Part shown: piece after piece, positions 16,869 to 57,686 of the stretch
How the letters are laid out: every line of letters starts with the position of its first letter
Numbering within the stretch: the stretch's first letter is position 1
Origin: Deltaproteobacteria bacterium
GTDB taxonomy: Bacteria; Myxococcota_A; UBA9042; PHBI01
Length of the DNA stretch: 64,000 nucleotides
Direction of reading: 5' to 3'
Assembly: GCA_006226565.1 (NCBI GenBank)
Contig: SBGO01000334.1
Span: forward strand, 359 to 64,358
The notes under the pieces: generated by a model
What the model was told of the DNA's origin: nothing
What the model saw: the letters and a program-made list of their open reading frames with translations, nothing else
The model's database searches: none
Made by a program: the position numbers and the translations under genes

Positions 16869-20904
<4,036 letters not shown>

Positions 20905-20908
<4 letters not shown>

Positions 20909-24468: not shown

Positions 24469-24504
24469 CCGTCCGGCCGAAGCGGCGTCGGACGGCACTT
24501 TTTT
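24469..24504 (+). terminator. GC-rich stem-loop followed by a T6 run (intrinsic-terminator-like or attenuator-like), inside the recC / AAA-operon divergent intergenic region
   Basis: CCGTCCG(24469-75) ...loop GCCGAAGCGGCGT... CGGACGG(24489-95), then CAC, then TTTTTT (24499-24504). A perfect TTGACA lies at 24451-24456 just upstream. The hairpin ends about 90 nt before the AAA-operon ATG. Confidence 0.35.
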
Positions 24505-24558
24505 CACCCTTACTTTCTGCAACTTGCGCCGCCAGGGGCTCAGATCTGAGTCGCCGCG

Positions 24559-24573
24559 CGTAGTAGGGGGGCA
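24559..24573 (+). promoter_or_regulatory. conserved 15-nt motif CGTAGTAGGGGGGCA, copy 1, 22 nt upstream of the tandem-AAA gene start
   Basis: The identical 15-mer recurs at 29847-29861. Both copies are followed by a short spacer, a T-run, a Shine-Dalgarno sequence (GGAGGAGAG / GAGGTGGA) and a start codon. Confidence 0.4.
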
Positions 24574-24595
24574 AAACGAAGATTTTGGAGGAGAG

Positions 24596-27438: not shown

Positions 27439-27453
27439 ACGAGGAGGCCCCCG

Positions 27454-34668: not shown

Positions 34669-34782
34669 CGCGGAATCTCCATGCTCGTCATTCCCCCACC
34701 GACGCTGTGCGCCCACGAAAACGCAGTCACGGTGGACCAGCGAGGTCGCATTGACAAGGCGGGTAGGCGACGCGAGATGCTT

Positions 34783-34794
34783 GGTGCAGGCACC
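34783..34794. promoter_or_regulatory. inverted repeat GGTGC-AG-GCACC upstream of the activator gene; TTGACA lies at 34751-34756
   Basis: Read directly. It sits in the 138-bp divergent region between the minus-strand gene 32812..34668 and the regulator gene, 13 nt upstream of the regulator's ATG. Confidence 0.3.
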
Positions 34795-34806
34795 GGCGAG
34801 GGTTCG

Positions 34807-36465
34807 ATGGACACCACGATCGCGAGCACCCAGCGTTCACCCGTACTCCTGACGTGGCTGGCGACACGCAACGACCCCTACGAGCGAGACAAGTCCGGGG
34901 GCGCGTTCAAGGAGCCGCGCGTCTGGGGACCGACCTTGACGCTCATGGCCGACCCGGAATCTCCATACAAAGGGCGCATCGACGACGTCGTCGTCTTCCG
35001 CCAGGCCGGACCCAAGGCGGCGGACCACACGCGCGTCTACGAGGAGCTCGTCGCGGCCCTCGAGGAGCACGAGATGGCGCCGCGCCTCCACCCGGTCCTC
35101 TGGGACCACGACGACCCGACCGACCACGCCGCGATCTACGACTTCCTCCGGACGGAGGTCCCTCGCATCCGCCGTCAGTTTCGAGACCGCGAGCTGGTCA
35201 TTCACCTCTCGCCCGGCACGGCGTCCATGCACACAGTCTGGGTGCTGATGTGCGAGACCGGCTTCATTTCCCAGCCGTTCACCGCCGTGCAGTCCCTACG
35301 CCCCGGTGAACGTCGCGGCCGCGCGCCGGTCAACGCGCTCCGGCTCGGCGTCGACACCTTTTTCAAGCGCTGGCAGGAGACCAAGCCCGCCGCCGCGAGA
35401 CTCGATGACCACCAATCCCTCTGGGATCCGTCGCAGTTCCGCTCGACCAAGATGCGCGCCCTCTACGACGAAGCCCGGCGCGCCGCCCGCCTCAAGATCC
35501 CCGTCCTCATCCTCGGCGAGCGCGGGACCGGCAAGACCACCCTCGCCTCCTGGATCCGCCTCAAGAGCCCGTTCCGCAAGTCCGCGCTCGACTCGGCCTG
35601 GCCCGCCGTCCCCTGCGGGCAGTACACGAACGAGACGATGCGAGCCGAGCTCTTCGGCTACAGAAAAGGCGCCTTCACGGGCGCCACGACGCACAAGGCG
35701 GGGCTCCTCGCCGAGGCGAGCGGCGACACCCTCTTCCTCGACGAGATCGGCGACGTCTCGAAGGACCTCCAGCGCCTCCTCATCAAGGTCCTCGAGGATG
35801 GCACCTTCCAGCCTGTCGGCAGCACCAAGGTAGAGCGGACCGACGTCCGACTTCTCACCGCCACCAACCTCCCCGACAACGAGCTCCGCGGGCGCCTCGA
35901 CGCCGACTTCCTCGACCGCATCAGCGCCTTCACCCTCACCGTCCCGCCGCTGCGAGAGATCCCCGACGAGCTCGAGTGGCTCTGGCCGAACGTCCTCGAC
36001 GAGGCCGCGCGCCGCGCCGCCGCGCCGACCCGGTATGCCCAGCTCCCGAAGCGCCACCACGCCCGCTTTGTCTCGGCGCTCCAACGGCACCCGCTCCCGG
36101 GCAACATTCGCGACCTCTTTCGCGTCGCTTGGCGCTTCCTCGCCGCCCGCGCCGACGACGACGCCCCGCTCAACGTCGAAGACGCCGTCGACTACGCGCT
36201 CGCCGCGATCGACCGTGATGCGGCGCCGGATGGCTCGTCGCGCACCATCGCCCGCGCCTTCGCCGACATGGAGCCCCTCCCTCCATCCCTCGTCGCCGAA
36301 ACGCCCCTCGACCCCAACCGCGTCATCGACGACTTCAAAGCCTGGTTCGCCGCCGAGGCCCGCGCGCTCGGGCAGCGAACCGGCCAACCGCTGGGTGACC
36401 TCGTGACCGTGACGGACCGGACGCTGAGGAACTGGCGGAAGGATGATTCCGAGGCGCCGGAATAG
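34807..36465 (+). CDS. RtcR-like sigma54-dependent transcriptional activator (bacterial enhancer-binding protein): CARF-like N-terminal sensor domain plus AAA+ sigma54-interaction domain
   Basis: ORF 34681..36465; ATG at 34807 (MDTTIASTQRSPVLLTWLATR). The AAA+ core has VLILGERGTGKT (Walker A), AELFGYRKGAFTGA (the GAFTGA sigma54-contact motif) and LFLDEIGD (Walker B). The N-terminal block ELVIHLSPGTASMHTVWVLMCETGFISQPFTAVQ closely matches the RtcR CARF segment (from memory YLVHITTGTHVAQICLFLLTESRHFPARLVQ). No clear C-terminal HTH was seen. Confidence 0.75.
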   Translation: MDTTIASTQRSPVLLTWLATRNDPYERDKSGGAFKEPRVWGPTLTLMADPESPYKGRIDDVVVFRQAGPKAADHTRVYEELVAALEEHEMAPRLHPVLWDHDDPTDHAAIYDFLRTEVPRIRRQFRDRELVIHLSPGTASMHTVWVLMCETGFISQPFTAVQSLRPGERRGRAPVNALRLGVDTFFKRWQETKPAAARLDDHQSLWDPSQFRSTKMRALYDEARRAARLKIPVLILGERGTGKTTLASWIRLKSPFRKSALDSAWPAVPCGQYTNETMRAELFGYRKGAFTGATTHKAGLLAEASGDTLFLDEIGDVSKDLQRLLIKVLEDGTFQPVGSTKVERTDVRLLTATNLPDNELRGRLDADFLDRISAFTLTVPPLREIPDELEWLWPNVLDEAARRAAAPTRYAQLPKRHHARFVSALQRHPLPGNIRDLFRVAWRFLAARADDDAPLNVEDAVDYALAAIDRDAAPDGSSRTIARAFADMEPLPPSLVAETPLDPNRVIDDFKAWFAAEARALGQRTGQPLGDLVTVTDRTLRNWRKDDSEAPE

Positions 36466-36528
36466 CTTTTCCGAGACGCCGCCTCGCAGCGAACCAACCT
36501 CGCAGGCCCGGCCAGCATTCCCGTTAGG

Positions 36529-36544
36529 TTGTAACACCTTACAA
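36529..36544 (+). promoter_or_regulatory. AT-rich inverted repeat TTGTAA-CACC-TTACAA immediately upstream of the sigma54 promoter (candidate activator or IHF-type site)
   Basis: Read directly. It stands out as an AT-rich palindrome in a 70%-GC background, 15 nt upstream of the -24 element. Confidence 0.35.
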
Positions 36545-36558
36545 AGAGCGACCAGACT

Positions 36559-36574
36559 TGGCCCACGGCTTGCG
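36559..36574 (+). promoter_or_regulatory. sigma54 (RpoN) -24/-12 promoter: TGGCCC-ACGGC-TTGCG
   Basis: It matches TGGCAC-N5-TTGCW with correct GG-to-GC spacing (11 nt). The predicted TSS is about 36586, 27 nt before the first ATG of the downstream operon (36613) and directly downstream of the sigma54 activator gene. Confidence 0.6.
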
Positions 36575-36612
36575 TAGGTCCTCGGTGTCCCCGCCACCAC
36601 CGAGGCCACCGC

Positions 36613-36909
36613 ATGCAAGCGACGCTCAGCCTGACGCATCACGCCGCGTACCGCGCCCGCACGCGCAGCATCCCCGCCGAGGCGCTCGACGCGGCCATGA
36701 CGTTCGGGCGCCACCGCGCGGTCCGCAACGCCGACATCTACACCCTCGGCTGGCGTGAGGTCCGGGCGCTCGCCGCCCGCGGCATCGACGTCGCCCGCTG
36801 GGAGGGCGTCGAGGTCGTCTGCTCGCACGACGGCGACGTCCTCACGACCTACCGCAACACCAACGCTCGCGCGCTCCGCCGGCCCTACGGCGTCCGCCGC
36901 GCGGCGTGA
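36613..36909 (+). CDS. small DUF4258-like protein, first gene of the sigma54 operon
   Basis: ORF 36613..36909 (98 aa). LTHHAAYRARTRSIPAEALDAAMTFG resembles the DUF4258 H-A-x-x-R-x-x-x-R-x-I core. This assignment is tentative. Confidence 0.4.
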   Translation: MQATLSLTHHAAYRARTRSIPAEALDAAMTFGRHRAVRNADIYTLGWREVRALAARGIDVARWEGVEVVCSHDGDVLTTYRNTNARALRRPYGVRRAA

Positions 36910-37655
36910 TCCAGCCGCTCGCGCGGTCGGTGTTGCGAACCGACCGCGCGAGCCTCTCCAACGCGAACGTGCAAATCAGCCCAACCACAACGGAGTACCG
37001 CCTCATGGCCGGATTCAAAGACTTCACGACCCAGACCGCGCGCCCCCTCCCCGTCATCATCCTCGCCGACGTGTCCGGCAGCATGGAGGGCGGCGGCAAG
37101 ATCCAGGCGCTCAACCACGCCCTCCGCGAGATGCTCGAGGCCTTCTCGGACGAGTCGGACCTCCGCGCGGAGATCCACGTCGCCGTCCTCACCTTCGGCG
37201 GCACGGCCAAGGTCCACATCCCGCTCGCCACCTCCGCGAAGGTCCGCTGGAACGACCTCGGCGCCGGCGGGGGGACCCCGATGGGGCAGGCGTTCGAGCT
37301 GACCCGCGCGATGGTCGAGGACCGCGCCACCATCCCGGGCCGCGCGTACCGGCCGACCCTGGTCCTGCTGTCGGACGGCCAGCCGACCGACGCCTGGCAG
37401 CAGCCCCTCGCCGCGCTCCTCGGCAGCGAGCGCGCCAGCAAGGCATTCCGCATGGCCCTCGCCATCGGGGAGGACGCCGATCGTACGGTCCTCGCGGCCT
37501 TCCTCGCCAACCCCGAGGCGCGCGTCTTCGAGGCGCACGAGGCGCGCCAGATTCGAGACTTCTTCCAGCTCGTCACGATGAGCGTCTCGAGCCGGTCGCG
37601 GAGCGCCAACCCGAACGCCACCCCCGCCCTCCCCTTCGCCGGCTACGATGTCTGA
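36906..37655 (+). CDS. von Willebrand factor A (vWA) domain protein
   Basis: ORF 36906..37655. The GTG start overlaps the upstream stop (GTGA); an alternative ATG lies at 37005. MIDAS motifs are VIILADVSGSMEG, GGGTPMGQA and LLSDGQPTD. Confidence 0.7.
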   Translation: MIQPLARSVLRTDRASLSNANVQISPTTTEYRLMAGFKDFTTQTARPLPVIILADVSGSMEGGGKIQALNHALREMLEAFSDESDLRAEIHVAVLTFGGTAKVHIPLATSAKVRWNDLGAGGGTPMGQAFELTRAMVEDRATIPGRAYRPTLVLLSDGQPTDAWQQPLAALLGSERASKAFRMALAIGEDADRTVLAAFLANPEARVFEAHEARQIRDFFQLVTMSVSSRSRSANPNATPALPFAGYDV

Positions 37656-38346
37656 GACGCGCGTCACCGGCTGCTCCGTGCGCGGCCCCGCCCACGTTCG
37701 CGACGGCTCGCCCGGGCAGGACGCCTGGTCGGCCGTCGCGGAGCCCGTCGCCTTCGCCGTCGCGTGCGACGGGATGGGGAGCCGCCCCCTCGCCCACGAG
37801 GGAGCCCGCGCCGCGACTCGGGCAGCGCTGCGGGCGTGGCGTCTGTGGCGTCGGTCGAACGCAGGCAGCCCCGAAGATCTCGTGCGCCTCATCGAGGTCC
37901 TGTGGCGTCTCGACCTCGGCGGGATCGCCCCCGCCGAGGCCTGCACGACGTGCCTCGTCTACGCCGAGGACCTCCACGGCCGGGCCGTGGTCGCACAGCT
38001 CGGCGACGGGCTCATCGTGCGACGCTCGCCGGACGGCGCTGTCACGACACATCCATCGCGGAAGCTCGACTTCGGGACCACCCACGCGCTCGGCGCCCCG
38101 CACACCCTCGCGGACTGGTCCTTGGCCGTCGCCCCGCCGCTCGCGCCGGGAGAGTCGCTGCTCCTCGCGACCGACGGCGTCTCCGAGGACCTCCTCCGCG
38201 ATCGGCTCGACGGCCTCATGCGCTGGCTCCACGCCGAGCTCGACAGCCGGCGGGCCCCCCATCACTGGCTCCGCCGGGAGCTCCACCGCTGGCCGGTCGC
38301 TCACCACGGCGACGACAAGACCCTCGTCATGCTGAGGAGATCATGA
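37648..38346 (+). CDS. PP2C-family Ser/Thr protein phosphatase
   Basis: ORF 37648..38346 overlaps the vWA gene by 8 nt. PP2C motifs are VACDGMGS, LLLATDGVSE and DDKTLVML. Confidence 0.75.
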   Translation: MSETRVTGCSVRGPAHVRDGSPGQDAWSAVAEPVAFAVACDGMGSRPLAHEGARAATRAALRAWRLWRRSNAGSPEDLVRLIEVLWRLDLGGIAPAEACTTCLVYAEDLHGRAVVAQLGDGLIVRRSPDGAVTTHPSRKLDFGTTHALGAPHTLADWSLAVAPPLAPGESLLLATDGVSEDLLRDRLDGLMRWLHAELDSRRAPHHWLRRELHRWPVAHHGDDKTLVMLRRS

Positions 38347-39683
38347 AACGCGAACACCGAGTCGTCATCGACGAGAACGGCACCCGCTACAGCCTGACGA
38401 ACCGCATCGGCAGAGGCGGTCAGGGTGAGGTCTGGCGGACCGACAGCGCCCACCGAATCGTCAAGCTCCAGACGAGCTCCCAGAACCCAGAGGTCACGCG
38501 GCGGCAGTTCGTCTTCGTGCGACGGCTCGATCTGCGCGGGCTCCACGTCGCCAAGCCCATCGCCGTCCTCGCCCCGCCGGCGGTCGGCTACGTCGCGGAG
38601 TTCCTGAGCGACATGACGCCCATTCGAACGCTGATGGAAGCCCCCGCCGAGGACCTCGTCGCGTGGCACGTCAGAACCGGAGGCCTGCGCCGCCGGCTCC
38701 GCCTCCTCGCTCACGCCGGCGAGACGCTCGTGGCGCTCCACGGTCGCGGCATCGTCTATGCGGATGTGTCCGACAACAACGTCTTCGTCTCGGAGCCCGT
38801 CGACGCGAGCGAGGCGTGGCTCATCGACCTCGACAACCTCAGCTACGCCAGCGATCCCCAACGCGCGGTCTACACGCCCGGCTACGGCGCCCCCGAGGTC
38901 GTCGCCCGGCGGGCCGGCTGCACCTCCCTCTCCGACGCGTGGGCCTTCGCCGTCCTCGTGTGGCGCGTCCTTACCCTCGGCCACCCTTTCGTCGGCGACT
39001 GGGTCGACGAAGGCGAGCCGGAGCTCGAAGACCAGGCGATGGCCGGCGAGCTGCCGTGGGTCGAGTGCGAGGACGACGACCGCAACCACTGCTCGACCGG
39101 TCTCCCCCCCGAGGTCACCGTGGGAAACCTGCTCCTCGGGCTCGCGCGCCGGACCTTCGAAGCCGGCCGCAGCGACCTGCGGGCGCGCCCCGGGCTGTCG
39201 GAGTGGGTCCACGCGCTCCACGCGACCGCCGACCAGACCCTGACCTGCCACGAGTGTACGGCGACCTACCTCGCGTCGGCGCCGGAGTGCCCGTGGTGCG
39301 AGGCGCAGCGGACCGAAGAGCTCCCGCTCAGGCTCGTCCGCTGGGACCCGGACCACGGCGTCGTCCGCTCTGCGGTCGCGCTCCGGCCGGTGCCGGTCAC
39401 CACCTTCCGCACCACCTTGACGCGCCGCACGACGGAGGGCGCGAGCGGCCTCATGGGCCGGGAGCCGCACGTCGAGCTCGCGCTCGTCGGGCGCGGCGTG
39501 ACCGTCCACGCCGCCGCAGGCCGCTCCGTGTGGGTCGGCCGACTCGATCGCTCCTCGGGGAAGCTCGTCGAGCGCCACGACGCCTCGTCTCGTCCCCGCA
39601 TCGTGCCGCGCAGCGGCTGGGTCATCTTCTTCGACGACCCGGCGAGGCCGCAGCGCGTCGGCCTGCTCGGAGGTGCCGCGTGA
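38343..39683 (+). CDS. Hanks-type Ser/Thr protein kinase with a C-terminal zinc-ribbon region
   Basis: This is the C-terminal 446 codons of ORF 37764..39683. The ATG at 38343 overlaps the PP2C stop (ATGA). Kinase motifs are GRGGQGEVW (Gly loop), IVKL (Lys), YADVSDNNV (catalytic loop), DLD (DFG-like) and YGAPE (APE). CHEC...CPWC forms a zinc ribbon. Confidence 0.8.
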   Translation: MKREHRVVIDENGTRYSLTNRIGRGGQGEVWRTDSAHRIVKLQTSSQNPEVTRRQFVFVRRLDLRGLHVAKPIAVLAPPAVGYVAEFLSDMTPIRTLMEAPAEDLVAWHVRTGGLRRRLRLLAHAGETLVALHGRGIVYADVSDNNVFVSEPVDASEAWLIDLDNLSYASDPQRAVYTPGYGAPEVVARRAGCTSLSDAWAFAVLVWRVLTLGHPFVGDWVDEGEPELEDQAMAGELPWVECEDDDRNHCSTGLPPEVTVGNLLLGLARRTFEAGRSDLRARPGLSEWVHALHATADQTLTCHECTATYLASAPECPWCEAQRTEELPLRLVRWDPDHGVVRSAVALRPVPVTTFRTTLTRRTTEGASGLMGREPHVELALVGRGVTVHAAAGRSVWVGRLDRSSGKLVERHDASSRPRIVPRSGWVIFFDDPARPQRVGLLGGAA

Positions 39684-42600
39684 AGATCCACGAAGTCACC
39701 AGCGGCGTCGCCGCGACCCTGCGCGTCACCAACCCGGAGGGCGCCTTCAGCCCGCCGCCCGCGACCGGCGATGAGCTGGTCCTGGTCTCGTCCTCCGATC
39801 AGATCCTCGCCCGCGCCGGCGACCTGGTCTGGCCCGTTCGAGGCACCACGCCGCTGGATCACGACGCGCTCGTTCGCGTGGTCGACGGCGCCGGTCCGTT
39901 CGTCGCATTCGTCGCCCGCTGTGTGGACGACACCATGGTCGTCGAGACGCGACGCTTCCGATCCGAGGTTCGGCTCGGTGAGCCGCTCGACATCGGCCTC
40001 GACGACAAGGCCCTCGACGACCTGCGCCGTACCACCCGTCGCGGCGGCAGCGTCGTCGACATCGTGCGGTGGCTATCGGAGCAGTTGCTGCTCCCACCGA
40101 TCCCCGGAGGGCCCTCCGAGCTCGCCCGCTTCGTGGTCGCAGGCGACCTGCGCGACCGGCCGGACGTCTTCCGCATCTACGGCCGCAGGCTGGCCGTCGA
40201 CGTGCGCCGTGCGGATGGGAAGCTCCGGGTCGAGCGCGCGGCCCGCGGCGCGACGCCCGGGAGGGAGCCGCTGACGCTGATGCTCGCCCCGGTGAGGTTC
40301 GTGGACGCGACCCTGACGGCGGAGCTCACGACGGAGGCCCGAGCCGCGCTCGAGCAGGCGGTGGCCGACGCTGGCAGCTACCTCGCGATGTGGGAGCACT
40401 TCCACGCGCTCGACGTCGCGACCACGGAGCAGCAGGCCCGAGCCTTCGGCGCGGTGGAGTACACCTCGCGGAAGCAGGGCCCCGAGCGCGGCTGGACCTT
40501 TCGCCTCGTGAAGGACGAGTCCCTCGCCGAGCGACTCGCCGTGCTCGCCGACGGCCACGGCGTGACACTCGAGGTCGGCGAGCGCGCACCGTCCTTCGAC
40601 GGCACCGGGAGGCCGAGGCGGAAGGAAGAGGGTCAGAAAGTCCCCTTCTCCAGCCACGTCACCCACCTCGACGCCGGCAAGGGGCGACTCGATCTCGCGC
40701 CGGCCGACGATGAGGCTGCAGCACCACCAGAGAAGGGCTTCCTGTTCATCGCGCGCGCTGGCGATCGGACGCGTCAGGCCCGGCGCGAGCGCGCCGAGGA
40801 GGCGCTCCGAAACGGGACCTGCCCGATGCCCCAGCTCGGCCTCCTGATGGAAGGGCGGCCCGCCCCGGCCGCTCGCCTGCCGCGGCGACCCGCGATGAGC
40901 CCCGCCGTCCGGGCGCTGTTCGGCCCCGACGGGCCCACCCAGCGACAGCGCGAGGCCATCGAGCGCGCACTGAACACGCCCGACGTCTGCCTCATCCAGG
41001 GGCCCCCGGGCACCGGCAAGACCAAGGTCATCACCGCTATCGAGGCCCGCGTCGCGGAGCTGGCCGACGAGGGCCTCGAGGTCTCGCACCGCGTCCTCGT
41101 CACCGCGGCCCAGCACGACGCCGTCGAGAACGTCGCCCAACGGACCGACGTCTTCGGCCTGCCGGCCGTCAAGATCGGCCGGCGACGAGGCGACGACGGC
41201 GACGGCGAGGACGCCGTCGATCGGTTCCGCGAGGACCGCATCGACGCGCTGCGTGCCAAGCTCCGCGTCCCCCCCGAGGCCGAGCGGCTCGCGAAGGCGC
41301 GCGCGATGGCGGTAGCCTGCATGCGCACCCGCGCGCTCCCCGACGCCCAGGCGCGACGCGTCCGCGAGATCGCGTCCACGCTCGACGGCCTGCTCCCCCC
41401 GGCGCTCGTGGACCGCGCGCTGGACCGCGCGGCCAGCCTGGAGTCGCGCTCGGACGCCGGAGACCCGGAGCAGCGCGAGCTCGAGCTGCGCGCCGCCCGC
41501 GGGATCCGCGTCACCCCCGGCCCATTCTCCGATGACGGCCCGCTCCAGGCCGCCAAGGCGCTGCGGCGCCTCGACGACCGACTGACGCCCGACGAGCGCG
41601 CCTACCTCGAGCGCTGCGCTCAGGTCGAGCAGGATGTGGCGCCCGATTGGATCGATGCCGGTGCGCCGCTCCGTGACGCGCTCATCGACCGCCTCTCCTC
41701 GGCCGCGACGCCGACCGAGGCGCGCCTCGACGACGACACCCAGCGGCTCCTCCTCACGCTCCTCGACGCCGTGGACCACCGCTACGCAAGCGCCGAACTC
41801 GGAGACGGCGCCGCGATCGCCGGCTTCATGCGAGACCTCGAGGGCGACCCCGAGGGCGTCCGCGAGATGCTCCAGCACTACACCGTCGTCCTCGCGGCGA
41901 CGCTCCAGCAGGCTGCCGGGCGCCGCATGATGGCGGCGCGCGGTCTCACCAGCGGTAGCGCCGAGTTCGAGACCGTGATCGTCGACGAAGCCGCGCGAGC
42001 CCACCCCCTCGACCTGTTCATCCCGCTCAGCATGGCGAAGCGGCGCGTCGTCCTCGTCGGCGACCACCGCCAGCTCCCCCACCTGCTCGAGCCCGATGTC
42101 GAGCGTCAGCTCGCCGACGGCGTGGAGTCCGGCAGCGTCGGCCAGGAGGTCCTCGAGGCGGTGCAGGCCAGCCTCTTCCAGCGGCTCTGGGAGTCGCTGC
42201 GACACCTCGAGAAGCAGGACGGGATCAAGCGAACCGTGACGCTCGACGTTCAGTACCGGATGCATCCGGTCCTCGGCGACTTCATCAGCCGAACCTTCTA
42301 CGAGCACCACGGCGACGGGCGCGTCGAGAGTCCGCGCCCCGCGGGCGACCTGGCCCACCAGCTCCCGGAGTATCTGCGGGACGGCGAGGGTGTCCCAGCG
42401 GCGTGGCTCGACGTACCGGCCCACACAGGCGCGGAGGTGCCTGGGCGCAGCAAGCGGCGGCCCGCCGAGGCGAAGACGATGGCGCGCGAGGTGCGCCGCC
42501 TGGTCGACGCGGATCCGACGCTTACTTTCGGCGTCATCGCCTTCTACGCCGGACAGGTCGACGAGATTGGTGAGGCGATGCTCAAGGAGGGGCTCACCGA

Positions 42601-44405: not shown

Positions 44406-44433
44406 AGCTCCATCTCTCCAAGGAAAGACCGAC

Positions 44434-48968: not shown

Positions 48969-49077
48969 GCCGAGAGAACCCGCGCCCGGAGCCCTCCGCA
49001 CCGCTCGTCCGTGTAGGCTGGACGGAGGCAGGCGCGTGGGCCATTGTCGCCGTTGTCCACGCGGACGGGAGCACGCG

Positions 49078-52000: not shown

Positions 52001-52197
52001 GCGGGGGGGACAACCAAGCGCTCATGTTCCTTCGCCAGCGGCGGCACGACGATCGCGGTGAGACGATGCCGTACACTCTACTTGGCCGCTGCTACTACGA
52101 ATCCCACACGGAGGAACGCCCCATGGAGATCGTCTGGGCGCTCGAGCACCCGATTCCAGCGGCATTCTACCAGGAGATCAAGGTCGCGGCGGGGTAG
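49078..52197 (+). CDS. PLD-family (HxK) nuclease / SF2 DEAH-type helicase / C-terminal DUF3427-like domain fusion
   Basis: This covers about 1039 codons of ORF 48628..52197 from GTG 49078; the start is uncertain. The PLD motif is RLHAKAWLLHRESGFSTAFVGSSNLS (HxK...GSxN). Helicase motifs are VVAATGTGKT, VVIVDEFHH, GLTATPER and TVDLFNEGVDLPDVDTVIFLRPTDS...QQLGRGLRR. Its 3' end overlaps the convergent gene by 20 nt. Confidence 0.7.
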   Translation: MSLKPGLYDLPVTRAVARALESLAVELRQVEDVEADELPLMLARHLQRRLVHAFGAIPRDERSTEAVELANRLLADVQERWPRAGHDAEDEVVAPARKLLAVAAPAIVPHVPERPAIPLATSDLLVNGHMDKAVGPELRRELASADRVDLLCSFIKWSGLRLLEDALKELLARRPRSLRVLTTAYMSATERRALDALVALGADVRVSYDTARTRLHAKAWLLHRESGFSTAFVGSSNLSAAALLDGLEWNVRLSQVDNGPILEKFEATFDQYWGDTEFQPYDPTTFDAALVTEPAGPTPSLLMLDIEPRPHQQEILDALAAERTHGHHRNLVVAATGTGKTIVAALDYRRLRRELPRARLLFVAHREEILTQSLLLFRVALRDGAFGELLVGRDHAARWDHVFASIQSLHADRLADLPRDQFDVVIVDEFHHAAADTYTRLLEHFTPRVLLGLTATPERADGRSVLGWFDGRVASELRLWKALDQGLLSPFHYFGVGGAPDISSERLWVRGRYDLSKLANVYTANHVFALRVLQEVEHKVTDIGKMRALGFCVDIAHAEFMAEQFGKRGVPSLAVSAKTSKSGRRGALEALRDGTIRVLFTVDLFNEGVDLPDVDTVIFLRPTDSATVFLQQLGRGLRRSRDKACLTVLDFIGNAHRRFRFDTRFRAIVGGTRRGVREQVEQGFPSLPSGCNIQLDREATRAVLDNIKHALGLGRRGLVDDLRQLTQERGNVDLDTFLRESGVDLEDLYTSKSGGWCFTRLRREAGVIPAPGDGDADAERNEQVERAYGRLLHLDDSWRLEGLRRLLAHAIPPSADPSDALQRALFVYLGDMRRPLTEMQSAFDHLWRNADLLDELRQLLALLYDRTRRLTTPLFGGGLDAPLQVHATYSLDEVMALVDERNSKGGIQRIQTGVYYLEAARTDLFFVTREKSEKHYTPTTLYKDYPLSTRRFHWESQSTCHAGTKTGRRYTTLARGGDNQALMFLRQRRHDDRGETMPYTLLGRCYYESHTEERPMEIVWALEHPIPAAFYQEIKVAAG

Positions 52198-55100
52198 CGG
52201 CCGTGTCGATTTGTTCCACCAGAACGAGGGCCCAGCCGGTATCGATCCAACGGGTTGAGGCCTTAGGCGTACCGTGGAGGTAGCGGAGGTGGTTGACGAG
52301 GGCTTCGTCGAGCGGGGCGTTGCGGCGCTTGGCCTCGTTGCGAGCGTAGAGGACCCATGCGAGGTCGGTCAGGGAGACGGTACGCTCGGCAAAGCCGTCG
52401 GGGCCGCCGTCGATGCGGAGACCACCCTGGGCGGCGCGCCCAACGATGTGGAGATGCTTGTCGTCGGTGACGAGCTCGGTGCCCGGTGGGTGTTCCTCGA
52501 GAAGCTGGGTGACGAGGCGAACGGCCGCCTCGAGCCACTCGGGTGGTAGCCGTCGAGAGGCGCTCCGCCCCCTGCCCAACGCGCGCCAGGTCGTGAAGTC
52601 GACATCGGGGATCGCCCATTGCGCGTCGTTCGGCAGAAAGCCTCCGACGCCCAGGAAGCGCCAGGGCGCGTCGCTGGCACCTCGTGCGAGGACGAACGCG
52701 GTCTCGCCTGGGCGAGGCCGGACTCGACGACTCGGGTGGACAACACGGTCTGGGTCGGCGAGAGCCCCCTGCCCTTCGACCAACACGAACAGGTGACCGT
52801 CGACCCTCTGGGCGGGCGCGCTCGGAGGCGCCGAGAGAGCGAAGGTCGCTGCGAGGTCATCCTCGGGCACCACTGACCCGACTTCCGGCGCGAGAGACTC
52901 CGGCCGCACGACGTCGACGAGCAGCGCGACCGGCTCATCACCCGGCCGAGCCGGCATCGGAGCGTGCTCGGGGTTGTCGCTGGCGAAGACAAATCCCGCG
53001 GCCGTCTGCTCCAGTCGCTTGATGTGATAGGTCTGGGTCTCGTCGTCATGCGAACGGGCCACCAAGACGACGCGATTCAGCAGGCGCGCACGCGACTCCC
53101 CCCGCGCCCAGCGCATCACCAGCCAATCCCCGTCACGGATGTCCCGTGACCACGGGATGGCGCGGCCCGACATCGAGTCGCCAGACGCTCGCACCGCAAA
53201 GCACGACTCGCGGTCGAAGTCGCCAGGAAGCGCGACCTCGTCCGCCTCGATTCCGCCTGCGTCGTAGCCCGCTGGCGACCACCCCGCCGCCGCCTGTAGG
53301 CTCGGAAACGCGATGAGTCGCCCACGACTCGGGAGCGGAATGACCGGCGCGTCGTCCGCCTCCACCGGGGTCACGTGCCAACCGTCCGGGCTCGGCGCAA
53401 ACCGCACACGGAAGCTCGTCCCTGAACGCCCGGCATCTGGCCCGAACCAGCCGCGCAACAAGTCCGGCAGTCGGTTCGCCGACGTTCCGACCGGGTGCGC
53501 CACGTTGACCGCAATCTTCGCGAACCGAAACACCCAGTGTCGCCCGTCCGGCGCGCGAACATCCGTCGGTCCCGACGGCAACCCCGGTGCGCGCTCGCGG
53601 TCCGGGAGCTTCAGGATTGGCCCCTGCGCGTTGTGGATGAGCTTGGCTTCGAAGGCAGTCCCCAACGACGCCGAGCCCTCGGCCGCGCGGCGCTGCCGAT
53701 AGCCCCACAGCCGATAGTCGACGAGCTCGCGCGTCATGGCCGTCAGCGCTTCCCGCGCCGACGATGGCACCGAAAACCTCGGCTCGAAGCGCGTCTCCGA
53801 CAGCCGGAACTGTGGCGTCTTGCCAGTCGTCCAATGCTCCAGCGGCCACTTCGTCCAGTAGGCTCGCCAAGCCTCGGCCGACGCGGTCCGCGGGTCGCCC
53901 AGTTCCTTCGCGCTGAGGTCTGCTTCCAGCTCAGGCGCGCGCAACATGATGGCGCGCGACCTCTCGCAGAGCGCCGAGACGTCCACGCCGCTCGCCAACG
54001 CGTCGAGGTCGACGAGCGCCTCGAGAGCGACCATCCTGAAGGACTTCGTCATCGACTCACGCCGCTCGACGGCACGCAGGAAGGCACCGGCCGCCGCCAG
54101 TGCCTCGCGCTCTCCGGGGGTCAGGTGCCCCTCCGACGCCACGAAGTCGAACCACCCCTCGAAGGACGTCAGACTTCGGGGATTGAACCCCTGGCGCGCC
54201 AGCTCGCCGATGCGCGGCCGTTCGCCGCGCAGCGCTACGCGGTCCCGATAGGCCCGGACCACCGCGTGGCGCGCCCCCGATGGAAGCAGGCGCCGGAGAA
54301 GGTCCTTGGCCTCGAGCGCGACATCGACGCTGCAGCCCGGCGGCAGCGATGCCGCCGTCCCGTCGAGCCATGCGCGCACCGACACCGGCCCGCCCGGGGC
54401 ACGTCCGAGATTCACGAGCGAGCGGACACGATCCAGGAAAACCCGGTGGTTGCCGACGAAGTCGATGACCGTCAGGCGCTCCTTCCCCGGTGCCTTGCGG
54501 AGTCCGCGCCCGAGCTGCTGCATGAAGATGACCGGCGACTCGGTCGGTCGAAGCATGACGACACGGTCGAGCGCTGGCAGATCGACCCCCTCGTTGAAGA
54601 GGTCGACGGTGACCACCGCCGTCACGGCGCCGTTCGCGAGCCCGCGCAGGGCATCGATCCGGTCCGCGCTGTTCGGGCCGGAATGGACGGACACCGCGGA
54701 GACGCCGCGCTCGGAGAGCCAGCGCGCTACGAAGTCGGCGTGGTCGATCGAGCAGCAGAACACCAACGACCGCTCACCCGGATGCGCCTGCCAGCCCTCC
54801 CAGAGTCGTTCCATCCGAGCGTGCGTCGCCACCGCGGCGGACAGCTCCGCCGGTTGGAAGCGCCCGCCCCGCCACGGGATCGGCTGATAGTCGACATTGT
54901 CGACCAGGCCGAAGTAGGCGAACGGCACCAGGTGTTCGAGGGCGATGCCGACCCCGATGTCCGCCTCGAGCGCCAGGTGGTCATCGAAGAGCCCGAGGAT
55001 GTCGCCACCATCTCCCCGCTCGGGTGTGGCCGTCAGCCCCAGCCGAAAGCGCGTGTCGAAGTGCTCGAGCACTCGACGATAGCTCTGGGCGTCCGCGTGG

Positions 55101-56545
55101 TGGACCTCGTCGACGACGAGGTAATCGAAGGCGCCACGTGGTATCCGACCGAGCTGCTCGGGCCGCGCCAGCTTCTGGATGGACGCGAAGACGACATCAC
55201 CTTCCAGGTTGTCGAAGGGACCCGCGAACCAGCCAAAGCGCGCGTCAGGAAGCACGCGCCGAAACGCGCTGGCCGCCTGACGCAGCAGCTCGTCTCGGTG
55301 CGCGATGAACAGGACACGCGGGGCGTGACCCAGCTCTCGCGCCATCGCATCGATATCGAACGCCGCCAGGAGCGTCTTGCCGAGACCGGTCGCCAGCACC
55401 ACAACAGCCCGGTCCCGATGCTCGGCGCGCGCCCTAGCAAGCGCCTCGAGAGCGTCGCCCTGAACATCCCGCGGCTTCGGCGGCGTGGTCTGCTCGGGGT
55501 TGACCTCCCCGTCCGGGCGGGGTCGCCCGGTCGCCCGAGCGCGTTCCGCGTAGGTCGCGAGCCACTCGTCGGTGAGCGGGGTAGCGACGCGCCACGAGCG
55601 CTCGAACGCCTCGAGCACCTCGGCGAACCCGACGGGGTCGGCCGTCCGATCCAGACGAAGGTTCCACTCGATGCCATCGGTCAGCGCCGCCCGAGAGATG
55701 TTCGAGCTACCGACGAACGCGACGTCCCGACGTCCGCCGAGGAAGACCCAGGACTTTGGGTGGAACGTCGCGGCATCGCGATAGTGCGCCGCCTCGACCA
55801 CACGGACGTCGAGCGCACCTCGCTCATCCGCAGCCTCCTCATCGAGGACCTCGGTGCGCACGAGGTCGAGGAGGCGCCGCAGCGCGTGGGCCTGGGTGAG
55901 ATTGAGGTAGTCGCCCGTGAGAATGCGGACAGTCGCGCCACGCGAAACCGCCAGGTGCAGGTCGGGCTCGAGCTCCCGGACCCCTGAGAGCATGGTGAAC
56001 GCAGCGAGGATCTGCACCTGACTCGCGGTGCGCAGGTACGGGCCGATGTGTGTGTAGAACGGATCGAGGCGGCCTCCCGTCGAGAGCCGCCGACCGCCGT
56101 CGCCTCGAGAGGCTGGCTGCGTCACCGCGAGGCGACGGGGGATGTGGCCCGCTCGCTTGTAGTTGCCCGCCTCGGGGATGACGAAACGGACACCGCCGCG
56201 TGGGTCGTCGACATCATCGCAGTAGCGCGGGATGACGTGGACGTGCAGGTGCATAACGGTCTGCCCGGCAGGCTCGCCCACATTGATGCCGATGTTGTAG
56301 CCGTCGGGTCGAAGCTCCTCGTCGAGCTCGCGCTTCACCTCCTCGACGAGGTCGAAGACCGCACGTTGCTCGTCCGGCGTGGTCTCGAACCAGCTCGCGA
56401 CCAGCCGCTTCGGAATGACGAGGGTATGACCGGGGCTGACGGAATATCCATCGCGGATGGCGAACGCGAGCGCGTTCGACGCCACCCACTCGGACTCGGA
56501 GCGCTCGAGGAAGACTGACGTCGGCGGGGCGGAGTCCTGGTTCAT
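52178..56545 (-). CDS. multidomain fusion: HIT (histidine-triad) nucleotide hydrolase, then PLD HxK nuclease, then SF2 helicase, then an unknown region, then an S24 LexA-like autopeptidase domain, then a C-terminal domain
   Basis: ORF 52178..56581; ATG at 56545 (MNQDSAPPTSVFLERSES). HIT motif VMHLHVHVIPR at about 56230-56251. PLD motif FHPKSWVFLGG...GSSNIS. Helicase motifs are VVVLATGLGKT, YLVVDEVHH, GLTATPER and TVDLFNEGVDLP...QQLGRGLRK. S24 motifs are SGDSMSG (Ser, 53171-53182) and YHIKRLE (Lys, about 53018-53020), which compare with LexA GDSM and VKRL. Confidence 0.75.
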   Translation of the reverse strand: MNQDSAPPTSVFLERSESEWVASNALAFAIRDGYSVSPGHTLVIPKRLVASWFETTPDEQRAVFDLVEEVKRELDEELRPDGYNIGINVGEPAGQTVMHLHVHVIPRYCDDVDDPRGGVRFVIPEAGNYKRAGHIPRRLAVTQPASRGDGGRRLSTGGRLDPFYTHIGPYLRTASQVQILAAFTMLSGVRELEPDLHLAVSRGATVRILTGDYLNLTQAHALRRLLDLVRTEVLDEEAADERGALDVRVVEAAHYRDAATFHPKSWVFLGGRRDVAFVGSSNISRAALTDGIEWNLRLDRTADPVGFAEVLEAFERSWRVATPLTDEWLATYAERARATGRPRPDGEVNPEQTTPPKPRDVQGDALEALARARAEHRDRAVVVLATGLGKTLLAAFDIDAMARELGHAPRVLFIAHRDELLRQAASAFRRVLPDARFGWFAGPFDNLEGDVVFASIQKLARPEQLGRIPRGAFDYLVVDEVHHADAQSYRRVLEHFDTRFRLGLTATPERGDGGDILGLFDDHLALEADIGVGIALEHLVPFAYFGLVDNVDYQPIPWRGGRFQPAELSAAVATHARMERLWEGWQAHPGERSLVFCCSIDHADFVARWLSERGVSAVSVHSGPNSADRIDALRGLANGAVTAVVTVDLFNEGVDLPALDRVVMLRPTESPVIFMQQLGRGLRKAPGKERLTVIDFVGNHRVFLDRVRSLVNLGRAPGGPVSVRAWLDGTAASLPPGCSVDVALEAKDLLRRLLPSGARHAVVRAYRDRVALRGERPRIGELARQGFNPRSLTSFEGWFDFVASEGHLTPGEREALAAAGAFLRAVERRESMTKSFRMVALEALVDLDALASGVDVSALCERSRAIMLRAPELEADLSAKELGDPRTASAEAWRAYWTKWPLEHWTTGKTPQFRLSETRFEPRFSVPSSAREALTAMTRELVDYRLWGYRQRRAAEGSASLGTAFEAKLIHNAQGPILKLPDRERAPGLPSGPTDVRAPDGRHWVFRFAKIAVNVAHPVGTSANRLPDLLRGWFGPDAGRSGTSFRVRFAPSPDGWHVTPVEADDAPVIPLPSRGRLIAFPSLQAAAGWSPAGYDAGGIEADEVALPGDFDRESCFAVRASGDSMSGRAIPWSRDIRDGDWLVMRWARGESRARLLNRVVLVARSHDDETQTYHIKRLEQTAAGFVFASDNPEHAPMPARPGDEPVALLVDVVRPESLAPEVGSVVPEDDLAATFALSAPPSAPAQRVDGHLFVLVEGQGALADPDRVVHPSRRVRPRPGETAFVLARGASDAPWRFLGVGGFLPNDAQWAIPDVDFTTWRALGRGRSASRRLPPEWLEAAVRLVTQLLEEHPPGTELVTDDKHLHIVGRAAQGGLRIDGGPDGFAERTVSLTDLAWVLYARNEAKRRNAPLDEALVNHLRYLHGTPKASTRWIDTGWALVLVEQIDTAATPPRP

Positions 56546-56644
56546 CCGACGCAGAATCGGGCCCCATCCCGCTGGCGTCAATCCGTCCCTGGAACAGCGA
56601 GGGCTGCTGGGCGACCGGGCCGGTGGGCCCGGTCGCCCACGACG

Positions 56645-57463
56645 TCAGTAGACCAGGCGCATGAGCTTGTCCCAGGTGGCCTCGCGGCGGGGGATGTCGC
56701 CGAGGACGTCGTAGACGCCGTGGAGCTCGGCCCAGAGGAGGGAGCGGCCGAGGAGGTCGGGACAGTGCTGGAGGCCGCGGAGGAGGACGTCGCTCGCCTG
56801 GCGGGCAGCGTCGGGGCTCTCGGCGCCGCCCAGGAGGGGCTCGCAGTGGAGGCGGCTCGTCGCGAGCCACGCGAAGACGTCGCCGGGAGAGGACTCGCGC
56901 CAGCGGTCGATGAAACGCGCGGCCTCGGGACGGCGCCCGAGACGGAGGAGCGCCATCGCGTGCAGGCGCTGGTGCTCCGAGCGCTCCGCCGGGAACCACG
57001 ACGAGAGCGGCCCGAGCAGGCTCTCCGTCACCTCGAGCAGGCACTCCGACCACGCCGGCACGACCCCGTGCCCCTGCGTCGGCGGCAAGCCGACCACCAT
57101 CGCCAGCTGACCGATGAACGCCGTGACGAACCGCTCGACGCGCTCGGACGCCGCCGCGACGTCGTCGAAGGACGGCCCGGACGGGCGCCCCACCAACGCC
57201 ACGAGCCCGCGCCACGCGTCGGTCCACGCTTCGTTCGGACCGGCACCCACCACCCGGCCCGCCTCACTCACGCGCCACCCGCGCTCGATGTCGCGCTCCA
57301 GCGCCGCCAGCGCCGCCCGCTCCGCCTCCGCCCACCGCCGCTCGCCGACGGGACGACGCCCCGCCCGAGGCCCGCGGCGCAGGCCTGCCGCCGGCAGGCG
57401 CGCCGACACCACGACCATCTCCTTGCCCCGACTCCGCCGCCTCGCGCCCTTCCTACCCTTCAT
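56645..57463 (-). CDS. hypothetical protein (272 aa, basic N-terminus), first gene of the minus-strand sigma54 operon
   Basis: The last 272 codons of ORF 56645..57934. ATG at 57463 (MKGRKGARRR) is preceded by GGAGAGGTGGA. No motif was recognised. Confidence 0.5.
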   Translation of the reverse strand: MKGRKGARRRSRGKEMVVVSARLPAAGLRRGPRAGRRPVGERRWAEAERAALAALERDIERGWRVSEAGRVVGAGPNEAWTDAWRGLVALVGRPSGPSFDDVAAASERVERFVTAFIGQLAMVVGLPPTQGHGVVPAWSECLLEVTESLLGPLSSWFPAERSEHQRLHAMALLRLGRRPEAARFIDRWRESSPGDVFAWLATSRLHCEPLLGGAESPDAARQASDVLLRGLQHCPDLLGRSLLWAELHGVYDVLGDIPRREATWDKLMRLVY

Positions 57464-57515
57464 CGTCCACCTCTCCGGCTCGTGCGCGCCACCGCGGCGC
57501 CGCCGGCCCGCATCG

Positions 57516-57530
57516 CAAGCCCCATGCCAG
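57516..57530 (-). promoter_or_regulatory. sigma54-type -24/-12 promoter on the minus strand: TGGCAT-GGGGC-TTGC
   Basis: The plus strand reads GCAAGCCCCATGCCA, which is the reverse complement of TGGCATGGGGCTTGC. That is one mismatch from TGGCAC-N5-TTGC, with correct spacing. It lies 53-67 nt upstream of the ATG at 57463. Confidence 0.5.
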
Positions 57531-57686
57531 CCCGAATGGGACACCTCCGCCACGGCCGGACGCGCCTCACACGCGACCACGCAGCACGACGCCGGGGTCG
57601 CTGAGCCCCAACGGTGGGGACCGTGAACCCGCCCGGCGCCGCCAGAAGGTGATGCCCTCCGCGCGTGGCTCGCGTATGGTCCCCGC

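Follow-up and report, generated by a model that had tools for sequence, protein, structure and literature searches.

The region described here lies within a window of 64,000 nucleotides, the whole stretch of DNA that was analysed, and is very probably a defence island of three separable parts: an RtcR-associated Type II CoCoNuT system (genes g1 to g9), a SauUSI-family enzyme (g10), and an independent neighbour, the fusion gene g11, accompanied by the orphan gene g12. The original prediction had recognised a defence locus and had matched it to no named system. The first part of that statement holds and the second does not: genes g1 to g9 are, gene for gene, the RtcR-associated Type II CoCoNuT, a named anti-phage system (Bell, Sahakyan, Makarova, Wolf and Koonin, eLife 2024, PMC11090510). 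Genes g1 to g10 are of already known kinds, and only g11, encoding a HIT-nuclease-helicase-LexA-like fusion, appears undescribed. All twelve predicted genes are present on the strands given for them, our calls agreeing with an independent gene call on the Logan assembly of the same DNA, and the domains proposed for the helicases, vWA, PP2C, kinase, McrB-like GTPase and PLD fusions are borne out by Pfam and PADLOC profile matches. The genes had also been described as a string of overlapping genes; this is true of g3 to g7 and of g8 and g9, but not elsewhere, the intergenic gaps measuring 95 nt (g2/g3), 28 nt (g7/g8) and 109 nt (g9/g10).

The division into parts is drawn from domain content, motifs, promoter conservation and synteny. 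Gene neighbourhoods were compared in 57 species-level loci with a full upstream flank, and the presence of g10 to g12 was scored in the 52 related loci whose sequence extends far enough downstream. The first operon proved to be a conserved, co-localised unit: CnuE (g7) is found in 57/57 loci, the kinase g5 and CnuC (g9) each in 56, the vWA gene g3 in 54 and the phosphatase g4 in 48, and the seven-gene core is collinear in all 54 loci that hold at least six of its genes. Of the 57 loci, 33 have a g1 homolog upstream and 34 a BrnT-like g2, in each case on the same strand. Homologs of g10, g11 and g12, by contrast, are not co-localised with this unit, all three being absent from 52/52 related loci. 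The distribution of the module is patchy and spans several phyla, and it sits among restriction genes.

Gene g1 (34807..36465, + strand) encodes an RtcR-like sigma-54 enhancer-binding protein with CARF, AAA+ and HTH domains, identified by PADLOC, Pfam, motif and synteny. The protein matches the PADLOC model RtcR_PspF1--CARF_AAA_HTH across its full length (2.5e-142) and Pfam Sigma54_activat (2.3e-40), and its translation contains the GAFTGA motif. The longest open reading frame of g1 starts at 34681. Inspection of the genes next to g1 found neither rtcA nor rtcB, as had been predicted, and the idea of a re-wired CARF/sigma-54 regulator is likewise upheld, the RtcR-type activator sitting on a non-rtc operon with a conserved promoter. 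This -24/-12 element, TGGCCCACGGCTTGC (36559..36573, + strand), lies 40 nt upstream of the g2 start codon. The two sigma-54 sites of the original prediction were well placed, the second being one base off, but 'textbook' was too strong a word: each has one mismatch to TGGCAC-N5-TTGC, and the -24 hexamer of the first reads TGGCCC in the window versus TGGCAC in related loci. A window-wide scan for TGGCAC-N5-TTGC gave 3 sites against 2.45 expected, which is not significant; the argument for a promoter relies on position and conservation. The -24 element TGGCAC occurs at the equivalent place in 31/31 testable loci; 22 of these carry TGGCAC-N5-TCGC, with at most two mismatches to the full consensus (0.06 expected per region), and the other nine have TGGCAC-N5-TTG(G/A) at the promoter position. 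The element was also seen in the same place in loci L008, L003 and L004.

Downstream of this promoter, g2 (36613..36909, + strand) encodes a small BrnT-like protein of the DUF4258/RelE family, assigned through alignment and the Pfam matches of its homologs. A DUF4258-like product had been proposed: the copy in the window has no Pfam match, DUF4258 included, but homologs match this domain over its whole length (1.5e-5, 7e-4 and 0.017). The next three genes, all on the + strand, form a TerY-P triad composed of a TerY-like vWA protein (g3, 37005..37655; VWA_2 9e-14, VWA 2e-11, PADLOC TerY 6.5e-4), a PP2C phosphatase (g4, 37648..38346; PP2C_2 1.3e-26) and a Ser/Thr kinase (g5, 38343..39683; Pkinase 9e-11) whose C-terminal zinc ribbon, a CxxC-N11-CxxC motif, is conserved in the alignment. 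The trio had been matched to the 'ternary' conflict modules, which conflates two systems; this identity is ruled out, 'ternary' systems being vWA-MoxR-VMAP systems (Kaur et al. 2020).

The CoCoNuT core proper consists of four genes on the + strand. CnuH (g6, 39680..42961) is a UPF1-like SF1 helicase (Pfam AAA_11/AAA_12) with an insertion of about 250 aa following Walker A; its AF2 model predicts an N-terminal HIRAN/SmpB-type OB-fold, a RelE-like domain and an Upf1/SETX-like OB/stalk module, likenesses also reported by Bell et al. (2024, PMC11090510). CnuE (g7, 42945..44405) combines a wHTH, weakly matched at residues 51-105, with a single C-terminal HEPN motif, RDRAAH, the only RxxxxH in the protein that is conserved across five loci. 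CnuB (g8, 44434..46962) fuses a long helical N-terminal region to a McrB-like GTPase (AAA_5) whose NxD+E motif, GTANHDE, is kept across loci and aligns with the NTAD motif of McrB 6ut3. The composition of residues 60-450 (64-76% A/E/L/K/R/Q, at most 8% P/G) by itself suggests that the helical region is of coiled-coil type. BLASTP aligned g8 with the Type I-A CnuB TBC54486.1 from the list of Bell et al. at 2e-25 and 5e-9, versus E = 0.01 with a canonical McrB. The McrC homolog CnuC (g9, 46959..48968) has a divergent DUF2357, which is the top sub-threshold match over the same residues in 5/5 homologs (2.5e-4 to 1e-2), followed by C-terminal zinc ribbons with the motifs CPVC, CPGC, CTTC, CPTC and CRHC; no profile match to Hsp70 was found in it. 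Assignment of g1 to g9 to Type II was made by gene order, motifs and published description, the direct BLASTP match being to Type I-A CnuB.

Gene g10 (49078..52197, + strand) is, on its profile matches, a SauUSI-family Type IV restriction enzyme, a known enzyme type with a PLD nuclease, an SF2 motor and a DUF3427 reader. It matches PADLOC mREase_IV PDLC03659 at full length (1.9e-257), PDB 7clg (SauUSI) at 2e-76, and Pfam PLDc_2, ResIII, Helicase_C and DUF3427 (7e-16). At the 3' end of the operon it fills a slot of variable content, which holds a classical McrBC in the nearest relative.

Convergent with it, g11 (52178..56545, - strand) encodes a fusion of 1455 aa (Pfam HIT, PLDc_2, ResIII, Helicase_C and Peptidase_S24) in which a HIT domain, PLD, SF2 helicase, helical coupler, B3/SRA-like barrel, LexA-type S24, second barrel and winged helix follow one another. 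A LexA-type cleavage site and Ser-Lys dyad are invariant in the family, which suggests a self-cleaving restriction enzyme. The family is widespread, and a literature search found no published description of it. Its members sit in unrelated defence islands, the closest relative carries a g11 homolog on another contig, and g11 probably stands beside CoCoNuT through island assembly and not through function.

The two PLD-helicases might nonetheless form a functional pair, acquired together apart from CoCoNuT, that heterodimerises or covers complementary DNA targets. They are paralogs, 38% identical across the PLD and helicase core, each has a single PLD motif (HxK/GSxN) and SauUSI dimerises via its PLD domain; the two genes overlap by 20 bp at their 3' ends, and both have a lower GC content (0.68 for g10, 0.68-0.69 for the two) than the core genes (0.72). 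We consider such a pair unlikely: a DUF3427 paralog accompanies g11 homologs in 0/5 contexts, a related MAG devoid of any g10 keeps g11 homologs in synteny with an Oxidored_FMN gene, and homodimerisation suffices for SauUSI.

Upstream of g11, g12 (56645..57463, - strand) encodes an orphan helical protein (weak TPR_14 match, 8e-4). Its GC3 of 0.93 supports coding. A single cluster of homologs (P0346, 51% identity) was found in 1.84 billion representatives, and the pairing of g12 with g11 is not conserved. Directly 3' of its stop codon, between the two genes, lies a 14-bp perfect GC hairpin (56608..56639, - strand), possibly a terminator or attenuator, within a 66-nt stretch that folds at -40.4 kcal/mol (z = -4.3; 0/200 shuffles fold as well). 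The second operon of the original prediction has its two genes and its sigma-54-like site in place, but a simple two-gene operon is uncertain because this hairpin splits g12 from g11. The site, TGGCATGGGGCTTGC (57515..57529, - strand), is 51 nt upstream of the g12 start codon, and the perfect consensus TGGCACGGGCTTTGC occupies the equivalent place before the g12 homolog in loci L009 and L010. A candidate site for activator binding lies further upstream: a conserved block with the imperfect palindrome CCCCACCGTTGGGG (57590..57622, - strand), which recurs ahead of the promoter in L009.

That all twelve genes make up one undescribed two-operon conflict system, with the activator co-regulating both convergent operons and the PLD-helicases as effectors, would agree with their physical adjacency, with sigma-54-like sites at both operon starts, the second conserved upstream of the sole g12 homolog, and with the paralogy and 3' overlap of g10 and g11. 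This scheme is very improbable and largely refuted by synteny, g10 to g12 being missing from every related locus scored and the nearest relative having McrBC in the g10 slot and its g11 homolog elsewhere; in addition, comparison of the two promoter regions found no common upstream motif, the hairpin separates g12 from g11, and g1 to g9 already bear a name.

For the island's CoCoNuT system and its cargo, we infer a mechanism, together with the ligand of the activator, the RNA that is attacked and a transcript running on into g10, from Bell et al. (2024, PMC11090510) and known RtcR biology. The activator would switch on the promoter upstream of g2 and thereby expression of the BrnT-like small RNase-fold protein, the TerY-P phospho-switch (vWA, PP2C and zinc-ribbon kinase) and the core, in which CnuH would act as a helicase with RNA-binding-type OB folds, CnuE as a putative HEPN RNase, CnuB as an NxD GTPase and CnuC as a putative nuclease-dead McrC-like adaptor with zinc ribbons. 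The CnuH-CnuE helicase-HEPN pair and the GTPase complex may degrade viral or ribosome-associated RNA, persistent infection leading to dormancy or abortive infection, and the CARF sensor could in turn respond to the products of HEPN cleavage. Assuming read-through from CnuC across the 109-nt gap, g10 would add an ATP-driven nuclease that cuts DNA bearing modifications, probably of cytosine. That the first operon might instead serve stress or RNA quality control, as a regulon answering RNA damage in the manner of Rtc, is suggested by its RtcR-like activator and by the kinship of CnuH with UPF1-type RNA-surveillance helicases and is scarcely credible given the lack of adjacent rtcA/rtcB, the location among restriction genes with a patchy multi-phylum spread typical of mobile defence cargo, the Type IV restriction enzymes appended in two related loci and the phage protection reported for Type II CoCoNuT (preprint, bioRxiv 10.64898/2026.04.06.716636).

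Compared with the published Type II CoCoNuT (PMC11090510), g1 to g9 have the same order and domains from activator to CnuC, and share the NxD GTPase, long helical CnuB, single-HEPN CnuE, CnuC with zinc ribbons and without an Hsp70 module, UPF1-like CnuH with N-terminal OB and RelE-like modules, and overlapping reading frames. The host is a myxobacterial MAG, whereas that paper mentions Myxococcal systems for Type III-A only. [quoted passage not shown] With the RtcR-RtcBA RNA repair regulon, g1 has in common the CARF, sigma-54 AAA+ and HTH domains, GAFTGA and a -24/-12 promoter immediately 3' of the gene itself, but it is not followed by rtcA/rtcB, reaches 191.8 bits with the NCBIfam RtcR equivalog, whose cut-off is 650, and is best matched by the PADLOC RtcR_PspF1 subgroup. 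Mokosh type I (MkoA/MkoB) resembles the locus in the CnuH helicase core (PADLOC MkoA, 8e-87) and weakly in the g5 kinase and CnuE N-terminus, which match MkoA and MkoB; the locus differs in its HEPN-motif effector in place of PLD, its kinase encoded by a separate gene and its McrBC-type CnuB/CnuC pair. SauUSI of S. aureus (PDB 7CLG) shares with g10 the whole architecture of PLD, SF2 motor, coupler and DUF3427 reader, to which g10 adds about 110 N-terminal residues, and with g11 the PLD and motor core (4e-73 to 7clg); g11 differs in having no detectable DUF3427 and in its extra HIT domain, B3/SRA-like barrels and LexA-type S24. Unlike those of LexA, lambda cI and UmuD, this S24 domain is set within a large nuclease-helicase and has no small DNA-binding repressor domain as its fusion partner.

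The twelve genes predicted between 34.8 and 57.5 kb are present; a second, independent annotation of this DNA returned the same products, and profile searches recovered every domain named in the original prediction. In a window of ~71% G+C, the first nine genes (g1-g9; 34807-48968, forward strand) encode successively an RtcR-like activator, a protein of ~100 aa, a vWA protein, a PP2C phosphatase, a kinase, a UPF1-like helicase, a protein of ~490 aa, a McrB-like GTPase with a long helical N-terminus and a Cys-rich protein of ~670 aa. Their reading frames overlap from g3 through g7 and between g8 and g9, and gaps of 95, 28 and 109 nt are found elsewhere. The RtcR-associated Type II CoCoNuT accompanied by a TerY-P triad and a BrnT-like gene is a published arrangement (Bell et al. 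2024, eLife, PMC11090510), and g1-g9 is such a system as judged from gene order and protein motifs. Gating by sigma-54 and a CARF regulator and a role in defence are supported, whereas the reading of the locus as an undescribed system is not. The 23-kb 'unknown system' splits into three: the RtcR-gated Type II CoCoNuT, which is published, the known enzyme type SauUSI, and a neighbour that is unrelated.

Homologs of the GTPase CnuB (g8) lie within the same set of nine genes in MAG PHBI01, the nearest relative, as well as in Archangium violaceum and Roseomonas genomospecies 6, and a fourth genome carries a partly degenerate version. A wider scan restricted to one genome per species found 243 relatives; the 80 loci kept belong to Myxococcota, Cyanobacteria, Planctomycetota, alpha-, beta- and gamma-proteobacteria, Verrucomicrobiota and Chloroflexota. 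In the 57 loci whose upstream flank is complete, and with only genes on the CnuB strand counted, CnuH and CnuE are encoded in all 57, the kinase and CnuC in 56 each, the vWA protein in 54 and the PP2C phosphatase in 48. Gene order, that of the triad included, is collinear in 54 of the 54 loci that lack no more than one of the seven core genes. The RtcR-like activator and the BrnT-like gene lie upstream on the same strand in 33/57 and 34/57 loci, respectively, an organization corresponding to the superoperon that starts at its 5' end with an RtcR homolog (CARF, AAA+, HTH) and has a BrnT-like gene in the same direction directly before the CoCoNuT (Bell et al. 2024, PMC11090510). In the Archangium violaceum locus (L002, CP043493, 1-2531), the TerY-P/CoCoNuT operon is preceded by the activator and the BrnT-like gene in inverted orientation, and the divergent intergenic region contains a palindromic TGGCGCGCCAC(A/G)TGC that is -24/-12-like on both strands.

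[quoted passage not shown] 2024, PMC11090510). The g8 protein carries GTANHDE, the NxD signature followed by E, in 5/5 aligned loci, and the N of the motif aligns with that of NTAD in the solved McrB structure 6ut3. Comparison with CoCoNuT proteins listed in that paper used Type I-A representatives of CnuB and CnuC: the CnuB TBC54486.1, which holds NMDE, is locally 41% identical to g8 (BLASTP E = 2e-25, versus 0.01 for canonical McrB). Residues ~60-450 of g8 consist of 64-76% A/E/L/K/R/Q with at most 8% P/G, a composition compatible with a long helical coiled coil. For g9, DUF2357 is the best Pfam match and falls on the same residues in 5/5 homologs, always below the cut-off; the evidence rests on these repeated sub-threshold matches since pairwise BLASTP of g9 to the Type I-A CnuC found no match (E = 0.29). 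The conserved HEPN motif is located in g7, the gene before CnuB.

[quoted passage not shown] 2024, PMC11090510). UPF1-family motor domains, an insertion of ~250 residues after Walker A and an OB/stalk module are found in g6. The N-terminal part of its AF2 model resembles HIRAN/SmpB-type OB, RelE-like and Upf1/SETX-like modules, as Bell et al. themselves describe; SmpB itself is not among the matches listed for g6, and its SPB and RTL domains are candidates. The two types differ in the partner proteins: Type II CnuC retains the CPxC motifs of zinc ribbons but has none of the Hsp70-like NBD/SBD or HEAT modules of Type III-A, and Type II CnuE has a single HEPN domain (RxxxxH) where that of Type III-A has two, the second with RxH (Bell et al. 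2024, PMC11090510). The 669-aa g9 protein contains four to five C-terminal CxxC pairs (CPVC, CPGC, CTTC, CPTC, CRHC) that are largely kept, and no Hsp70 or HEAT Pfam match was found among 5 homologs at E <= 1, which indicates Type II rather than III-A. In g7, RDRAAH near the C-terminus is the only RxxxxH kept in all 5 aligned homologs, in which no RxH is conserved, and a weak wHTH match lies near the N-terminus; this single predicted HEPN motif is the Type II state. Type III-A can thus be rejected, both the Hsp70 or HEAT module and the second HEPN motif being missing.

Upstream of the CoCoNuT genes, vWA, PP2C and Ser/Thr kinase domains follow one another in g3, g4 and g5 (Pfam), the order of a TerY-P triad, and g5 ends in a CxxC-N11-CxxC ribbon after the kinase domain. 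The g2 protein of the window has no DUF4258 match; such matches come from three of its homologs, and one of these exceeds the curated cut-off. The activator g1 matches the PADLOC RtcR-type CARF_AAA_HTH profile over its full length (2.5e-142) and possesses a GAFTGA motif. Its identity as a bona fide RtcR regulating RNA repair is rejected: its score against the NCBIfam RtcR equivalog is 191.8 bits, far below the cut-off of 650, rtcBA is not adjacent, and profile searches detected neither RtcA nor RtcB among the downstream genes g2-g10.

Both sigma-54-like sites of the original prediction exist, each with one mismatch to TGGCAC-N5-TTGC. The first, TGGCCCACGGCTTGC (36559-36573, forward strand), is located 40 nt before g2. 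Three such sites were found in the window versus 2.45 expected, so that the count by itself is not significant, and it is position and conservation that support them. In 22 of 31 activator-to-BrnT intergenic regions, TGGCAC-N5-TCGC occurs, at most two mismatches away from the consensus (0.06 expected per region), and the remaining nine carry TGGCAC-N5-TTG(G/A) at the same place, so that the element is kept in position in 31/31 loci from several phyla. Sigma-54 control of the operon led by g2 is therefore well supported by sequence comparison. The variant -12 element TGGCAC-N5-TTG(G/A), devoid of the canonical GC, characterizes the sub-clade closest to the window (L012-L021, L027, L031 and L090); the window and the locus of the nearest relative (L008) have TGGCCC-N5-TTGC instead, and drift affects either hexamer, never both. 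In its treatment of regulation, the CoCoNuT paper proposes RtcR-type control by analogy with RtcR and maps no promoter (Bell et al. 2024, PMC11090510); the comparative evidence added here argues for a sigma-54 promoter as the means by which the RtcR-like activator drives these CoCoNuTs.

A mechanism can be proposed from RtcR biology and from Bell et al. (2024) for the architecture, motifs, synteny and conserved sigma-54 element observed here. The AAA+ core of g1 would remodel the sigma-54 holoenzyme at the promoter, and the operon would then yield a phospho-switch, a BrnT-like protein of RNase fold and, acting on RNA with the GTPase-adaptor complex, the pair of helicase and HEPN protein. HEPN cleavage products may reinforce the signal, g10 would contribute the cleavage of modified DNA, and either the infection would be cleared or the cell would become dormant. 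Protection of P. aeruginosa against RNA phages and a single DNA phage has been reported for a Type II CoCoNuT of seven genes (preprint, bioRxiv 10.64898/2026.04.06.716636).

The original prediction had united g1-g12 in one two-operon system and had made co-localisation in other genomes a criterion for it. The last three genes do not co-localise with the others in the related loci and are therefore placed outside the conserved system. The first of them, g10 (49078-52197, forward strand), combines PLDc_2, ResIII, Helicase_C and DUF3427 in one polypeptide (Pfam), the SauUSI-type architecture, and matches PADLOC mREase_IV over residues 113-1031 (1.9e-257) and SauUSI itself (PDB 7clg; 2e-76). By these similarities, g10 is a SauUSI-family Type IV restriction enzyme for which cleavage of modified DNA is predicted, SauUSI being an enzyme that cleaves 5mC/5hmC DNA in an ATP-dependent manner. 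It is absent from 52/52 related loci with at least 8 kb of downstream sequence. The slot after CnuC is occupied by a classical McrBC in the nearest relative and by HipBA, or by UvrD and a YprA-type helicase, elsewhere; with contents so different between loci and g10 missing from all 52, this slot holds variable cargo. The McrBC pair of the nearest relative (L008 14687-18687; AAA_5, McrB_lid, McrBC) lies 3' of CnuC on the same strand, so that two consecutive GTPases of the McrB family are encoded there.

The convergent paralogs g10 and g11 (52178-56545, reverse strand) overlap by 20 bp at their 3' ends (52178-52197), leaving no room for terminators, and their GC of 0.68-0.69 is below the 0.72 of the CoCoNuT genes. 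They have the PLD and motor core in common (38% identity over ~630 residues, BLASTP), and similarity stops at residue ~749. The g11 protein begins with a HIT domain carrying HxHxHxx, and its C-terminal half of 700 residues has no Pfam match to DUF3427, matching B3, SRA, SBD-like and LexA-like domains instead. More than 120 full-length family members (50-79% identity) are found in Myxococcota, Planctomycetes, Nitrospirae and Thermoanaerobaculia. Homologs of g11 reside in unrelated defence islands: one from Anaeromyxobacter follows DUF1156 and DUF499 genes near an integrase, another is beside PemK, SLFN-type helicase and NERD genes, and a further one is beside an Hhe-like gene. In the nearest relative, the g11 homolog is on a different contig from the CoCoNuT and adjoins an Oxidored_FMN gene that also flanks g11 in the window.

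A GxSM serine (Ser1124), a KR lysine (Lys1176) and an A-A-G tripeptide 36 residues before the serine are invariant in 34 members of the g11 family. In E. coli LexA, 34 residues separate Gly85 from Ser119. With a Ser-Lys dyad and an Ala-Gly site ~35 residues upstream of the serine, g11 holds a complete predicted LexA-type self-cleavage module inside a restriction-type nuclease-motor. Cleavage at Ala1087-Gly1088 could part the HIT-PLD-helicase-reader half from the C-terminal half, and RecA filaments might be the trigger. We advance only tentatively, and with some doubt, that g11 represents an undescribed and widespread class of single-polypeptide restriction enzyme, its activity licensed by LexA-type self-cleavage at the invariant Ala1087-Gly1088 in response to RecA-ssDNA filaments or another infection cue, which would free the nuclease-motor half (1-1087) from a C-terminal regulatory/reader half, and in this lineage also preceded by a conserved sigma-54 promoter that has a palindrome of its own upstream. 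No description of the HIT/PLD/helicase/S24 architecture was found in the literature, which does not prove its absence. Self-cleavage of HIT-SauUSI-like-LexA fusions, if it occurs, would directly couple restriction to the sensing of DNA damage.

The second sigma-54-like site, TGGCATGGGGCTTGC (57529-57515, reverse strand), lies 51 nt before g12 (56645-57463, reverse strand), which encodes an orphan helical protein with a single homolog cluster among 1.84 billion representatives. This site is probably real since the only g12 homolog, on the related metagenome contig L009 (7760-7881), has the perfect consensus TGGCACGGGCTTTGC at the equivalent position. A conserved block common to the window and L009, with the imperfect palindrome CCCCACCGTTGGGG (57590-57622, reverse strand), lies ~60-105 nt upstream of the second promoter and is a candidate activator-binding site. 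Beyond the promoter itself, the two promoter regions have no upstream activator site in common, and co-regulation of the second promoter by g1 is therefore unsupported. Right after the g12 stop codon is a perfect 14-bp GC hairpin (56608-56639, reverse strand; -40.4 kcal/mol for a 66-nt stretch, z = -4.3). The element GATTGACG, ~35-45 nt before the g11 start codon, is kept in the window and L009 and hints at a separate g11 promoter. On L009, a second sigma-54-like site, TGGCCCCGGACTTGC (9964-9978), precedes a Polyketide_cyc2 gene directly followed by the g11 homolog (79% identity; 10020-14972). Sigma-54 may thus control the g11 family in this lineage. Between 46 and 58.5 kb, scans for sigma-70 and terminator consensus sequences yielded nothing above shuffled sequences.

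Other genes of the window include a 1618-aa ORF with N6_Mtase and Eco57I methylase domains (5465-10321, reverse strand; Type IIG/L or BREX PglX-like), another restriction-type gene. A RecB-like (UvrD-helicase, 1408 aa) and RecC-like (1170 aa) pair (16865-24417, reverse strand) precedes genes for an ATPase with two AAA domains and a winged helix (24455-26815, forward strand) and for a MoxR-like AAA_5 ATPase (27439-28539, forward strand). Two large genes divergent from the activator (30750-32762 and 32812-34716, reverse strand; 670 and 634 aa) have a lower GC3 of 0.79-0.82 and no Pfam or PADLOC match; the first encodes a long Ala/Pro/Ser-rich central region. A scan for tRNA and tmRNA genes found none in the window, which therefore gives no integration-site clue.

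Mokosh type I consists of the helicase MkoA and the PLD nuclease MkoB, and the helicase core of g6 is similar to MkoA (8e-87). The similarity of g7 to MkoB covers only the MkoB N-terminus (1.8e-3), and g7 terminates in a HEPN motif without PLD; with a predicted effector of HEPN rather than PLD type and a McrBC-type pair present, Mokosh is rejected. The 'ternary' systems to which the vWA, phosphatase and kinase genes were originally likened associate vWA with a MoxR AAA+ ATPase and a third component, VMAP, iSTAND or FtsH (Kaur et al. 2020), and are dismissed as well, the trio being TerY-P in an operon with neither MoxR nor VMAP. The variable cargo after CnuC agrees with the ancillary DNA restriction genes reported alongside CoCoNuTs by Bell et al. 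(2024, PMC11090510), with the difference that g10 is found here at the 3' end. Type IV DNA restriction enzymes accumulate in this slot, a SauUSI-type one in the window and McrBC in its nearest relative, which fits the proposed combined defence at the DNA and RNA levels.
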